From: Ilumatobacteraceae bacterium
Lineage (GTDB): Bacteria; Actinomycetota; Acidimicrobiia; Acidimicrobiales; Ilumatobacteraceae
Length of the DNA stretch: 64,000 bases
NCBI GenBank assembly: GCA_040401975.1
Contig: JBBANL010000009.1
Coordinates: 8,257-72,256, forward strand
Direction of reading: 5' to 3'
A model generated the notes under the pieces. The model worked only from the letters and a program-made list of their open reading frames with translations, did not search any database and had not been told where the DNA came from. Positions 8,066 through 11,091 of this stretch are shown piece by piece. The stretch's first letter is position 1; each line of letters starts with the position of its first letter. The position numbers and the translations under genes are program-made.

Positions 8066-8085
8066 TGTGAACGGTGTGTGAACGG
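8066..8085 (-). promoter_or_regulatory. 20-nt motif TGTGAACGGTGTGTGAACGG (two GTGAAC repeats 11 bp apart), copy A
   Basis: It abuts the stop of the antiporter fusion gene and lies 139 nt upstream of the PII start at 7927. It is 19/20 identical to 11072..11091. Confidence 0.5.
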
Positions 8086-8086
8086 A

Positions 8087-10750
8087 TCAGTTCAACTGTT
8101 CGCTGACACGGTCAATCGCGGTCTGGGTGATCTTGCGACCGTGCCGTGTCGACACCTCAAACCGGTCGGACACCGCGCCGTCAAACGTGCTGATGCGTGC
8201 GTGGTGGACATTGATCCGTGCCCGTGCGAACGCTGCCGCGATGGCCTGGACGAGTCCGGGCTGGTCCGAACCCGTCACCGTCACCACGCTGTGCCAGGGG
8301 TGGGCATCGTTGTCGAGAGACAGGGAGAGAACCGCGCCCGTATCCCGCATCAATCGGCGCGAATCATCGATTTTTCGGCGCAGGCGCTTCTCCAACTCAA
8401 CGGCTAATTGCGGCGCCTGGGGGCTTTGTTCGCTGCGCACTCGGAACGTGTCGAGAACTGCACCGTCGCCCCATGTCGCGAGGTCGGCATCGACAATCTC
8501 GAAGCCGCGCTCTGCGAGCACTGCGCAGATGCGGGCCAGCAAGCCGCGCATGTCGCGGGTCGCGATGTCGATCTCCCATTCGTTCGAGACGTCGGTGGCT
8601 CGAACGTTCACGCGCACGGTGCGAGGGCGCGGCGCCGGTTCGACCAGGGTGGCGTGTCTCACGAGCACCTCGGGTTCGTGTGCAAGCAGGTACACAGGGG
8701 CGGCGTTGCGCAGGCGTTCGATCACGAGCGGGTCGGTTGTCAGCGCAATCGCGTCGCGTCGACGGACTTCGACCAGAGAATTCTCGGAACCTTCGATGAG
8801 TTCGGGATGCGCGAGAAGTGTCTGCACGTTGGTGGTGATGTCGACGAGCACGGAGAACTGCCAGTCCTGCAGATCGCCCCTTGCCTCAGTCAGCAGCCTG
8901 CACCGCTCGACCATCACGGGGGTCGCGAGGAATCCGGCGAGCTGGGCGAGAACGCGGTTGTCGGGTTCGTACGGTTCGGTGGTGCACGCAACATGCAACA
9001 GGCTCGATGCCGACATCAACGAGCGGGTCTCCTCGCGCGTGGCGTCATCGAGTGCCAGCCGGTCGAGCAGGGTCGACGCATCGGAGCCGTCGGAGAAGTC
9101 GGAGATGAACGCCGCGAGCAACAACGACTCATCGGCCGGAGAGAGTCTGTTGGACAGTTTCTTCAGCGCTTCGAGAACCGGTGTCTGTGCGAGGTGTGTG
9201 GGGTCCAGTTCGCTCGCGTCGCCACGCCGCGAACGTAGTGCGCGGGCAATCTCGGGCAATGCGCGCTCGAGAACGTTCGTCACGTCGAGAAAACGCCACG
9301 AGCGGGCGTTGCCCCGCATCAGCAGTTCGAGCAGCAGGTCGGTGGCACGAGAGTCCCACGTCAGCGGCGTGGCCCGTGTGGCGTGCATCCAATCGAGCAG
9401 CGCAGTATTGGGTTGCGAATGTGCGGCATGAAGTGACGCCTCGAGAGCCAACGGCAGCACGAGATCGGTGGGGGGGACCCCGTGCAACTGAACCTCGCCG
9501 TCGATGGCCCGGATCCAGCCGCCGACCGGTTCGTCGGTGGTGGCGGGTTCCGTTGTCGCGGCCGCGGCATCGTTCTTCGAGATTCTCCAGCGCAACAACG
9601 GCGGGGTGATGACAGTGGTGACGAGAACCATCAAAAGCACCACCGCGTAGAGGTCGTCTTTGAACACCCCGACAGACACCCCGATTGATGCAAAAATCAA
9701 CCCGACTTCTCCGCGCGGAACCATGCCGAATCCGATGACCAGTTTGTCGGTGTTCGTGCCGAGCGCACCGAGAGCGGCAAGCATCTTTCCTGCAATCGCA
9801 ATGACAGAGAGAATCGCGGCAACAATCAGGACATGGCCGTCAAAGAACTTCGTGACGTCGGTGTCGATGCCGATCTGCATGAAGAACACGGGAATGAAAA
9901 TGCTGCCGAGCACTGCGAAGTCACGGGCGATGCGATCGTGGTGCTCGGTACGTGCCAGAGCAACCCCGGCGACGAAGGCTCCGATGATCGGCGCCAGCTT
10001 CGCTCCGCTCGCCGCGGCGGAAAATCCGAACGTGACGCCCGCGGCGACGACCCCGACCGTGACCGGTGACGCGGCACGTGAAGAGATCCACTTGATGATG
10101 CGGGGCAACAGCACGAGCCCGATTGCGCCCGCCACCACAAGGAATCCGACGGCGAGCCCGATTGTGCTTGCGAGTCCCGCTGCATCGATCGACCCCTGTT
10201 CGACGACCCGCGTGACCACCGTGAGGATGATCAGGCCGAGAACGTCGTCGGCAACGGCCGCGCCGAGAACGATTCGCGCCTCGGTTGACGACAGAGCCTT
10301 GAGGTCGCCGAAGACACGGGCGGTGATCCCGACGCTCGTGGCCGCCAGTGCCGCCCCGAGGAACAGTGAGGCATTCATGCTCTCGCCGAGCAAACCGCCC
10401 GCGATGACGCCGCTCGACATCGGCAGTGTCACACCGAGAATGGCCACGATGAACGACGCGCGTCCGACGCGTCGCAATTCATTGAGGTCCATCTCGAGCC
10501 CCACCTCGGCGAGCAGCACGATCACGCCGACCTCGGCGAGGACACGCAATGCATCACTCGGCTCGACGAGACCGAGGGCAGAGGGACCAATCAGGATTCC
10601 GGCAACGATCTCACCTAGAACTGCGGGCACGCCCGCCCGTTCGCACAATTCAGACGCAATCTTGGCGACGATGAGCACGATTGCCAGGGTTGCGAAGATC
10701 TGACCGAAGTCGACGCCCTGTGCGGCAGCAGAAAAAACCACGGCGATCAC
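8087..10750 (-). CDS. CPA2-family cation/proton antiporter fused to a GlnD-like C-terminal regulatory region with two ACT domains
   Basis: N-terminal ~420 aa are Kef-like (GEIVAGILIGPSALGL, AVADDVLGLIILTVV). The C-terminus carries two ACT-like units (WEIDIATRDMRGLLARICAVLAERGFEIVDADL..., HSVVTVTGSDQPGLVQAIAAAFARARINVHHARIS...). The start is set at GTG 10750, 2 nt after the stop of the upstream gene. An alternative ATG at 10819 would overlap that gene. Confidence 0.7.
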   Translation of the reverse strand: MIAVVFSAAAQGVDFGQIFATLAIVLIVAKIASELCERAGVPAVLGEIVAGILIGPSALGLVEPSDALRVLAEVGVIVLLAEVGLEMDLNELRRVGRASFIVAILGVTLPMSSGVIAGGLLGESMNASLFLGAALAATSVGITARVFGDLKALSSTEARIVLGAAVADDVLGLIILTVVTRVVEQGSIDAAGLASTIGLAVGFLVVAGAIGLVLLPRIIKWISSRAASPVTVGVVAAGVTFGFSAAASGAKLAPIIGAFVAGVALARTEHHDRIARDFAVLGSIFIPVFFMQIGIDTDVTKFFDGHVLIVAAILSVIAIAGKMLAALGALGTNTDKLVIGFGMVPRGEVGLIFASIGVSVGVFKDDLYAVVLLMVLVTTVITPPLLRWRISKNDAAAATTEPATTDEPVGGWIRAIDGEVQLHGVPPTDLVLPLALEASLHAAHSQPNTALLDWMHATRATPLTWDSRATDLLLELLMRGNARSWRFLDVTNVLERALPEIARALRSRRGDASELDPTHLAQTPVLEALKKLSNRLSPADESLLLAAFISDFSDGSDASTLLDRLALDDATREETRSLMSASSLLHVACTTEPYEPDNRVLAQLAGFLATPVMVERCRLLTEARGDLQDWQFSVLVDITTNVQTLLAHPELIEGSENSLVEVRRRDAIALTTDPLVIERLRNAAPVYLLAHEPEVLVRHATLVEPAPRPRTVRVNVRATDVSNEWEIDIATRDMRGLLARICAVLAERGFEIVDADLATWGDGAVLDTFRVRSEQSPQAPQLAVELEKRLRRKIDDSRRLMRDTGAVLSLSLDNDAHPWHSVVTVTGSDQPGLVQAIAAAFARARINVHHARISTFDGAVSDRFEVSTRHGRKITQTAIDRVSEQLN

Positions 10751-10752
10751 GA

Positions 10753-11025
10753 CTAATTGTCTATCCGCTGGGCGAGGATTTTCTTCGCCGAATTGAGTCC
10801 GCGTTCCGTCAGGATCCATCCGCGTTGTCTCACGGTGTTGATTGCATCGGGCCCGAGCACGCGACGCAGGGCGACAAGACACACGTCGGCACGGCGCAGG
10901 CTCGCCGAATCAAGCCCGGCCAGGCGGGCCAGAGTCTCCCGGCTCGTCACGCGTCCTTCTTGTCGAACCAGCACGCGCAGCACGCTGATGTCGGCGTCGG
11001 TGAGGTCGTCGGAGCCGGGGTTCAT
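10753..11025 (-). CDS. Stand-alone OmpR/PhoB-type winged-helix DNA-binding protein (no receiver domain)
   Basis: 90 aa. LTDADISVLRVLVRQEGRVTSRETL...RRADVCLVALRRVLGPDAINTVRQRGWIL follows the OmpR C-terminal effector-domain pattern. Confidence 0.65.
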   Translation of the reverse strand: MNPGSDDLTDADISVLRVLVRQEGRVTSRETLARLAGLDSASLRRADVCLVALRRVLGPDAINTVRQRGWILTERGLNSAKKILAQRIDN

Positions 11026-11061
11026 TGCGACCTGACCCTAAGTGAGGAATTTTTCGGGGGT

Positions 11062-11091
11062 GTTCGGCTGTTGTGAACGGTGTGTGAATGG
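11062..11091. promoter_or_regulatory. Three 11-bp-phased repeats (GTTCGG, GTGAAC, GTGAAT) containing 20-nt motif copy B
   Basis: Repeat starts at 11062, 11073 and 11084. The 20-mer TGTGAACGGTGTGTGAATGG occupies 11072..11091. It lies in the divergent region between the wHTH gene (start 11025) and the acyl-CoA dehydrogenase gene (start 11145). Confidence 0.5.

Follow-up and report, generated by a model that had tools for sequence, protein, structure and literature searches.

We analyzed a 64-kb window (the whole stretch of 64,000 nucleotides taken from contig JBBANL010000009.1 of an Ilumatobacteraceae bacterium), focusing on two near-identical 20-mers located in a cluster of nitrogen genes. Copy A lies upstream of a unit encoding a PII protein and an ammonium transporter (PII-amt), and copy B lies upstream of a unit encoding a 90 amino acid winged helix-turn-helix (wHTH) protein and a cation:proton antiporter. 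Our analysis indicates that both 20-mers are very probably boxes of GlnR, the orphan activator of the OmpR/PhoB family that controls actinobacterial nitrogen-assimilation genes. Copy B makes up the distal half of an array with four sites, and copy A is an additional distal box of a canonical array. The 18-mer motif used in our genome-wide scan is the predicted operator of the GlnR regulon of this lineage, because it precedes glutamine synthetase (GS) genes, a GlnR orthologue is encoded nearby, and its geometry and composition are of the GlnR type. The cis-element itself is an ordinary set of GlnR boxes of a known kind and not a new mechanism. A modest novelty appears to lie in its targets, namely a predicted GlnR-controlled fusion of an antiporter with the C-terminus of GlnD, together with an NnaR-like mini-wHTH partner.

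Architecture of the nitrogen promoters

On the forward strand, copy A reads TGTGAACGGTGTGTGAACGG (positions 8066-8085) and copy B reads TGTGAACGGTGTGTGAATGG (positions 11072-11091). The initial annotation had described both as matching at 19 of 20 positions in the same orientation, and our coordinates and match search agree with this description. With up to 3 mismatches allowed, copies A and B are the sole matches in the window, where 0.02 copies were expected against the two observed, and none of 100 shuffled sequences contained two or more. Both copies are intergenic, and no intragenic copy is present in the window. The reported distances were also correct when measured against the gene starts: 139 nt from position 8066 to the GTG start codon of PII at 7927, 47 nt from 11072 to the ATG of the wHTH gene at 11025, and 54 nt from 11091 to the ATG of a divergent acyl-CoA dehydrogenase (ACAD) gene at 11145. 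It had been missed that copy A begins 1 nt past the stop codon of the antiporter gene.

The 11-bp internal repeat was confirmed within both copies, each of which is a tandem of TGTGAACGG with an 11-bp period. On the transcribed (-) strand the element reads CCGTTCACACACCGTTCACA, i.e., GTTCACA-n4-GTTCACA (n being any nucleotide), and each of the two hexamers of the 20-mer becomes TTCAC, giving two nnnAC pentamers located 11 bp apart. The 20-mer as first delimited is real but is just part of a longer array that had been overlooked. Of the TTCGG elements that had been placed next to each copy, both are present (8055-8059 for copy A and 11063-11067 for copy B), but meaning can be attached only to that of copy B, which forms the third in-register site of its array (on the - strand, CGAAC) and is kept in orthologues. 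At copy A, TTCGG was rejected as a third site: it is 2 nt off register and is not conserved, since the orthologous locus L002 has CCAAC and L003 has ACAAA at this position.

The four sites of the wHTH-antiporter promoter (Table 1) are followed after 10 nt by a predicted -10 hexamer of the form TAnnnT. A sigma-70 consensus scan had instead proposed TTCACA-17-AAAAAT for copy B. This candidate was rejected because the TAnnnT located 10 nt past the fourth site is kept in all orthologues, while AAAAAT is not (AAAACG in L004 and L005, AAACGG in L010). Since the -10 hexamer lies only 6-9 nt before the ATG in orthologues, the wHTH-antiporter mRNA would be effectively leaderless. Copy A, for its part, is separated by 19 nt (C to C) from the proximal four-site array of the PII-amt promoter. 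A third promoter of the same type precedes a second ammonium transporter gene (Amt2). Clear arrays in the window are restricted to these three nitrogen promoters, and the few other three-site matches score near shuffle level. The promoters are distinguished by a lineage-typical TTCAC-n6-TTCAC distal pair, a constant 10-nt gap to the -10 hexamer, and a new target operon.

These features agree with what is expected of GlnR boxes regarding the form of the pentamers, the 6-nt spacers arranged head to tail, the position of the array over the predicted -35, and the canonical targets amt, glnK, glnA, and glnII. The GlnR consensus of Tiffert from 2008 reportedly reads gTnAc-n6-GaAAc-n6-GtnAC-n6-GAAAc. 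Published boxes follow gTnAc-n6-GaAAc in Streptomyces, t/gTAAC-n6-Gc/aAAC in M. smegmatis, and t/g-n-a/c-A-C in S. erythraea, and the A at pentamer position 4 is irreplaceable (PMC10704036). In the GlnR activation complex solved by cryo-electron microscopy, four DNA-binding domains are placed head to tail around the -35, with b2 downstream of the -35, on a scaffold extending from -64 to +13, and both 8HIH and 8HML are confirmed as GlnR structures (PMC10235972). The arrays described here resemble GlnR-dependent promoters (8HIH) in their 5-nt sites with near-invariant A4 and C5, their 6-nt spacers, and their four head-to-tail sites over the -35, the last of which lies between the -35 and the -10. 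They are also found upstream of amt/glnK and glnA/glnII, and related genomes encode a GlnR orthologue. They differ from known GlnR boxes in several aspects: (i) they belong to an Acidimicrobiia-like lineage, for which no study of GlnR was found in the literature consulted; (ii) the preferred distal pair is TTCAC-n6-TTCAC (a-a-b-b), whereas known boxes follow the order a-b-a-b; (iii) conservation of the flanking G/A, and of CnCC within the spacer, is unusually high; and (iv) the operon of the wHTH protein and the antiporter-ACT fusion is not among the GlnR targets described so far.

The PII-amt promoter can be compared with that of amtB in S. coelicolor, which has three boxes (a3-b3, a1-b1, and a2-b2), among which the distal a3-b3 box has the strongest affinity, is indispensable, and doubles as a PhoP site (PMC5826061). 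In both, the canonical array of two boxes in front of an ammonium-transporter operon has an extra distal box upstream of it. The gene order is glnK-amt in the window and amtB-glnK-glnD in S. coelicolor, and the distal box described here directly abuts the antiporter stop codon, with an offset of 19 nt (C to C) to the site that follows.

In the mechanism that we propose, where the -10 boxes, transcription starts, GlnR binding, and direction of regulation are all predicted, each pair of pentamers would accommodate two DNA-binding domains of GlnR in a head-to-tail arrangement. The copy B pair, in register with CGAAC and GAAAA, would complete a set of four sites spanning from about -60 to -23 and ending 10 nt before the -10. 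The copy A pair would serve as one more distal box, set 19 nt before a canonical array of the order a-b-a-b with the same 10-nt gap to its -10, and a three-site array precedes the second amt gene. Under nitrogen limitation, a GlnR tetramer would occupy the arrays, plus a dimer on the distal box. GlnR would then substitute for a weak -35 and switch on the genes for the wHTH protein, the antiporter-ACT fusion, and PII, Amt, Amt, and PII.

Conservation and genome-wide distribution of the arrays

The initial annotation had suggested an alignment of orthologous intergenic regions as a check. To do this, 81 orthologous loci were fetched via the antiporter protein, independently of the motif, and the arrays proved to be conserved at the same promoter positions. 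The same arrays, together with the 10-nt gap to TAnnnT, are present upstream of the wHTH, antiporter, PII, and Amt genes down to approximately 40-48% protein identity. At the wHTH promoter, TTCAC-n6-TTCAC-n6-CGAAC-n6-GAAAC is found in a strict 11-bp register in 13 loci whose antiporters share 44-79% identity. In all these promoters the array is followed after exactly 10 nt by TAnnnT (TACGGT, TACCGT, TAGGGT, and others), with the ATG 6-9 nt later. Diverged wHTH promoters keep the plan, with TTTAC, GTCAC, CACAC, and GAGAC in L007 and TTCAC, GCAAC, CACAC, and GAGAC in L033.

L002-L005, L007, and L011 retain the proximal array of the PII-amt promoter, and a variant form is present upstream of amt in L010, L014, L025, and L031. 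The distal box is found at the fixed 19-nt (C-to-C) offset in L001-L004 and in L007, where it reads GTAACAcaccGTTAACA. The array of the Amt2 promoter is kept in L002, L003, and L007, with a variant in L004. In addition, arrays are located directly upstream of the antiporter gene in loci without a wHTH gene (L008, L009, L017, and L031).

Across 76 sites, the pentamers show G/T in 89%, A/C at position 3 in 85%, A in 96%, and C in 85%. A position weight matrix of 38 nt recovered just its two training arrays, as it also weighted the spacer columns and was overly specific. This matrix was superseded by a pentamer-level model and by a training-free rule requiring at least three of four pentamers ending in AC in an 11-bp register, followed by TAnnnT 9-11 nt later. 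The rule identified 46 sites in the 81 protein-anchored loci, compared with 2-13 in shuffled sequences. The gap was exactly 10 nt in 41 of the 46, and most sites lie upstream of wHTH, antiporter, PII, or Amt genes. It also detected the Amt2 promoter of the window and arrays in distant Amt-antiporter lineages without a wHTH gene.

A genome-wide scan for the motif had been proposed as well. We scanned 185,579 species genomes (one per species, GTDB) with the 18-mer pattern GTTCACACNCCGTTCACA, which fixes the spacer exactly, and obtained at least 120 loci. Outside the cyanobacteria, the matches listed are concentrated at GS and wHTH-antiporter promoters. Among the matches listed, which do not include the genome that the window comes from, 21 are cyanobacterial and 99 are non-cyanobacterial, most of the latter being labelled Ilumatobacteraceae, Acidimicrobiales, Acidimicrobiia, or "Actinomycetes bacterium". 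Within these 99, the motif is found upstream of GS genes in 60 cases (48 of type II and 12 of type I), upstream of wHTH-antiporter units in 16, and in truncated GS-type arrays in 2, which together account for 78 of the 99 (79%). The GS promoters read TTCAC-n6-TTCAC-n6-GCAAC-n6-GAAAY, followed by 10 nt and a -10 box.

Approximately 40 of the listed loci encode, within 8 kb, a protein that shares 62-70% identity with the DNA-binding domain of GlnR in PDB 8HML. In L115 (positions 1335-4611, - strand), the motif is followed by glnII, a second GS gene, and a gene for a 221 amino acid regulator. The best structural relatives of this regulator are the GlnR entries 8HIH, 8HIG, and 8HML (E=4e-41 to 2e-34), ahead of MtrA (4e-25) and PhoP (1e-14). 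Sequences, register, conservation, and the association of the motif with glnA, glnII, amt, and glnK and with a GlnR orthologue in related genomes were all seen directly. GlnR had been named initially as an alternative to the 90 amino acid protein, and it is this alternative that the box geometry and composition, the association with GS, the nearby GlnR orthologues, and the arrays in loci without a wHTH gene support. Likewise supported is the suggestion that ammonium uptake and the antiporter operon are controlled together, in the form of shared membership in a regulon.

In Ilumatobacteraceae-type loci, we observed glnR in a cluster together with glnII and another GS gene, either in the order motif-glnII-GS-glnR or with glnR located approximately 1.4 kb upstream of the GS promoter.

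A separate group of matches is formed by L088, L093, L094, and 18 other Prochlorococcus/Synechococcaceae loci, in which the 18-mer GTTCACACACCGTTCACA (GTTCACACGCCGTTCACA in L153) lies 28 nt upstream of an ORF encoding 152 amino acids. In the 21 listed cyanobacterial genomes its context is AT-rich, intergenic, and conserved, and it probably serves an unrelated regulator of the OmpR family.

Assigning a regulator and a promoter architecture to this nitrogen cluster is relevant in poorly studied, mostly uncultured actinobacteria, to which the GlnR box model is extended here in the form of a four-site array, a -10 located after a gap of 10 nt, and, at amt, one further distal box. The element is also useful for annotation.

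Alternative readers of the element

Several observations weigh against GlnR as the reader of both 20-mers. The fourth site of the copy B array is GAAAA and not GAAAC, the distal box of copy A is 3 nt off the helical register of the proximal array, and a distal box of the copy A type is missing in L010, L011, and L025. Furthermore, no GlnR gene was found in the 64-kb window. Two further points concern phosphate regulation. First, the PHO-box unit is 11 nt long and starts with GTTCACC, which GTTCACA matches at 6 of 7 positions in both repeats (PMC2691820). Second, the 18-mer precedes a gene for a PstS-like protein in L084, so that PhoP-type proteins may read it.

Based on these last points, the GTTCACA pair could be a PHO box that primarily serves a PhoP-type regulator, which would repress or block nitrogen genes under phosphate limitation, as PhoP does at the distal site of amtB in Streptomyces. 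As in the PHO box of Streptomyces, the element is an 11-nt direct repeat whose unit begins with GTTCAC, at nitrogen-gene promoters. In addition, PhoP has a site of its own at amtB in S. coelicolor, located upstream of the GlnR boxes, which overlaps a3-b3 and resembles copy A. Against this stands that the repeats described here continue in register into GAAAC sites and a -10 box, unlike the Streptomyces PHO box, and that they are associated with GS and not with pho genes. At the GS and wHTH-antiporter promoters, two GlnR-type pentamers and a -10 box continue the exact register of the pair, which is the geometry of an activator site. The pentamers of orthologues vary as gTnAC (GTAAC, TTAAC, GTCAC, TTTAC) and not as GTTCACC, and the orthologous variants GTAACA, GTTAACA, and GTCACA deviate from the PHO-box unit. 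A pst neighbor is present in only 1 of the 99 listed non-cyanobacterial matches, which belongs to another class, compared with the 78 at GS or wHTH-antiporter promoters. Among the listed matches from genomes labelled Acidimicrobiia, no 18-mer is adjacent to pst genes, a result of limited power, as the pattern with its exact spacer restricts this test of pho association. No further pstS genes from which to define a PHO box of the lineage were present in the fetched loci. Taken together, we judge a primary PHO box unlikely, while competition by PhoP for the distal pair of a GlnR promoter is plausible in analogy to Streptomyces.

In L084 (a metagenome-assembled genome of the Solirubrobacterales; 2815-2832, - strand), the 18-mer lies upstream of the PstS-like protein gene (PBP_like_2) and is not followed by GAAAC sites.

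The initial annotation had favored an autoregulated circuit in which the 90 amino acid protein binds the GTGAAC repeats and controls its own operon together with PII-amt. This private circuit draws on the fact that an OmpR-type DNA-binding domain is encoded 47 nt from copy B and that the wHTH protein is conserved beside the antiporter in many loci. The description of the domain holds, given that the protein matches Trans_reg_C and no receiver domain is present in the 90 amino acid ORF. The autoregulation is not supported: GlnR is favored over the mini-regulator because the arrays also occur at GS promoters (60 of the listed matches share the 18-mer and array) and at antiporter or Amt promoters of loci and Amt-antiporter lineages without a wHTH gene.

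The sequence of the protein argues in the same direction. It is only 33% identical to the DNA-binding domain of GlnR, and the residues that contact DNA are replaced (Trp177 by Ala, His191 by Cys, and Arg193 by Val, with VDVHVRRLR becoming ADVCLVALR). Its recognition helix, RRADVCLVALRR, with the family consensus RRCDSxLVxxRR, lacks the His/Arg/Trp contacts of GlnR. As a homologue search returned only 11 close relatives, orthologues of the family were gathered from the fetched loci instead. These are conserved stand-alone proteins of 86-106 amino acids with the consensus ...AVLxVL...GRVxSR..L.R.AGL....RRCDSxLVxLRRALGPDSIxTVRxRGWML. The best NCBIfam match of all 22 members is the C-terminal wHTH of PRK07239 (uroporphyrinogen-III synthase-like plus wHTH), which we infer to be of the NnaR type, based on what PMC6277429 describes. 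In that account, NnaR is itself targeted by GlnR and, at leaderless promoters, binds a palindrome located beside the GlnR boxes. The family nearest to the 90 amino acid protein thus reportedly recognizes such a palindrome and not the boxes themselves. The local circuit is therefore quite improbable, and instead of reading the GTGAAC repeats, the protein more likely serves as an accessory factor under GlnR control.

NnaR, which combines a HemD-like domain with an OmpR-type wHTH, is a GlnR-dependent co-activator of nitrate/nitrite genes. The likeness to NnaR extends to the promoter, given that the gene for the 90 amino acid protein has a GlnR-type promoter and a predicted leaderless start, as do nnaR targets. 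The protein differs from NnaR in having no HemD-like sensor domain, and its gene is translationally coupled to the antiporter gene and not linked to nir/nas. An 8-bp inverted repeat (CGGTGTGT/ACACACCG) surrounds the distal site of copy B. It was rejected as an NnaR-type palindrome, as it is kept in close relatives only and its half-sites are opposite in orientation to those of the published NnaR motif. In L013, L019, L022, and L065, the gene upstream of the antiporter appears to encode a longer protein ending in the same wHTH domain.

MtrA, an essential response regulator that represses nitrogen genes in Streptomyces, could also be the main reader of the boxes. MtrA sites and GlnR boxes share a core for which the two proteins compete in Streptomyces (PMC9151340), and a similarity between their sites has also been described in mycobacteria (PMC6277429). 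The regulator encoded beside motif-bearing GS genes, on the other hand, is closer to GlnR than to MtrA (by the E values given for L115), and the four-site layout over the -35 is the activator layout solved for GlnR. Moreover, MtrA may bind here as well, as it does in Streptomyces, but it would overlay GlnR control and would not change the identity of the sites, and we regard it as very unlikely to be the main reader.

Finally, a chance match or a dispersed repeat of the REP (repetitive extragenic palindrome) or MITE (miniature inverted-repeat transposable element) type, with no operator function, has nothing in its favor but the shortness of the element and is excluded by the excess over expectation without intragenic copies, the same promoter positions across distant orthologues, and the concentration of the listed non-cyanobacterial copies at GS or wHTH-antiporter promoters.

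With GlnR retained as the probable reader, a more far-reaching proposal can be made, which we consider rather unlikely. The GlnR regulon of uncultured Acidimicrobiia-type actinobacteria might hold an undescribed module in which the NnaR-like wHTH protein acts as a co-factor or anti-activator of GlnR at the arrays or at the PHO-box-like distal pair. The gene for this protein is translationally coupled to that of the CPA2 antiporter, whose GlnD-derived ACT domains could sense glutamine, and the well-conserved distal GTTCACA pair would be a shared integration point for GlnR and PhoP or for GlnR and the wHTH protein, in place of a plain GlnR box. If this were true, the antiporter fusion could act as a nitrogen-status-gated valve for cations or ammonium alongside Amt and PII.

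Genes of the cluster and additional features

Table 1. Predicted promoter elements and genes of the nitrogen cluster, in positions of the window.
Feature	Position	Strand	Evidence or remark
Copy A, predicted distal GlnR box	8066..8085; TTCAC at 8082-8078 and 8071-8067	-	Sequence match, internal repeat, orthologue conservation
Proximal four-site array of the PII-amt promoter, GCCAC-n6-GAAAC-n6-GCGAC-n6-GAAAT	8015..8052	-	Orthologue alignment, pentamer models
Predicted -10 of the PII-amt promoter, TACCGT, 10 nt past the last site	7999..8004	-	TAnnnT and 10-nt gap in all orthologues
Copy B, distal two pentamers of the wHTH-antiporter array	11072..11091; TTCAC at 11088-11084 and 11077-11073	-	
Four-site array of the wHTH-antiporter promoter, TTCAC-n6-TTCAC-n6-CGAAC-n6-GAAAA	11051..11088	-	Approximately 13 antiporter-anchored loci; 16 motif-scan loci
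Predicted -10 of the wHTH promoter, TAGGGT, 10 nt past the last site and 9 nt before the ATG	11035..11040	-	
Third GlnR-type promoter, upstream of Amt2, TTCAC-n6-GAAAC-n6-GAAAC	6257-6231 (whole 6215..6257)	-	
Predicted -10 of the Amt2 promoter, TAGCGT, after a 10-nt gap	6220-6215	-	
90 amino acid stand-alone OmpR-type wHTH protein (NnaR-DBD-like)	10753..11025	-	Pfam Trans_reg_C, E=3.7e-7
CPA2-type cation:proton antiporter (Na_H_Exchanger) with a fused GlnD-like C-terminal part carrying two ACT domains	8087..10750	-	
PII (GlnK-type)	7589..7927	-	Pfam P-II, E=6.6e-34
Ammonium transporter 1 (Amt1)	6328..7599	-	Pfam Ammonium_transp, E=2.6e-122
Ammonium transporter 2 (Amt2)	4928..6178	-	
Second PII gene (PII2), after Amt2	4555-4893	-	
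FrhB/FdhB-like protein with 4Fe-4S dicluster domain, after Amt2-PII2	3311..4621	-	
Divergent acyl-CoA dehydrogenase (ACAD)	11145..12380	+	Shares intergenic region with copy B

The antiporter gene starts 2 nt past the stop codon of the wHTH gene. Its product consists of a CPA2 transporter part (residues ~20-390) and a C-terminal region of approximately 260 residues that matches the C-terminal part of GlnD/uridylyltransferase, including both ACT domains (TIGR01693, E=4e-24). Linkage of the antiporter gene to amt or PII genes, in the orders wHTH-antiporter-PII-Amt or Amt-antiporter, is seen in many of the recovered metagenome loci and makes the fusion an interesting candidate for nitrogen-status-gated ion transport. 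Placing this widespread and uncharacterized fusion and its mini-wHTH in the nitrogen regulon provides a functional hypothesis for both. In the close relative L152, the wHTH promoter and gene are present and PII follows approximately 150 nt further, the antiporter gene being apparently absent.

The order Amt2, PII2, FrhB/FdhB-like gene is the same in L002 as in the window, and the FrhB/FdhB-like 4Fe-4S protein may be a further member of the nitrogen cluster. On the other side of copy B, the pairing of the ACAD and wHTH genes is kept in nearly all loci of the clade, and because of this conservation the GlnR array may also influence ACAD. Upstream of the ACAD gene (11100-11147, + strand), a -10 hexamer of the CAGACT type is conserved 8 nt ahead of the ATG, and this gene looks leaderless too.

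No terminator-like site is present between the antiporter stop codon and PII, and read-through from the wHTH promoter into PII is possible for this reason. The predicted 5' untranslated region of PII (7952..7991, - strand) contains two stem-loops, AGTTGC-AACC-GCAACT (7991-7976) and GTCATCAC/GTGATGAC (7967-7952). Pairing in the stems is kept despite sequence changes in L002-L004 (e.g., GTCACT-TTCG-AGTGAC and GTCGCT-CCCC-AGCGAC), and a comparison of this leader with Rfam gave no family match. Directly past the Amt1 stop codon (~6270-6325, - strand), a GC-rich hairpin followed by TTTTCT, which a simple terminator scan did not flag, is kept in L002-L004 and looks like a terminator that separates Amt1 from the Amt2 promoter.

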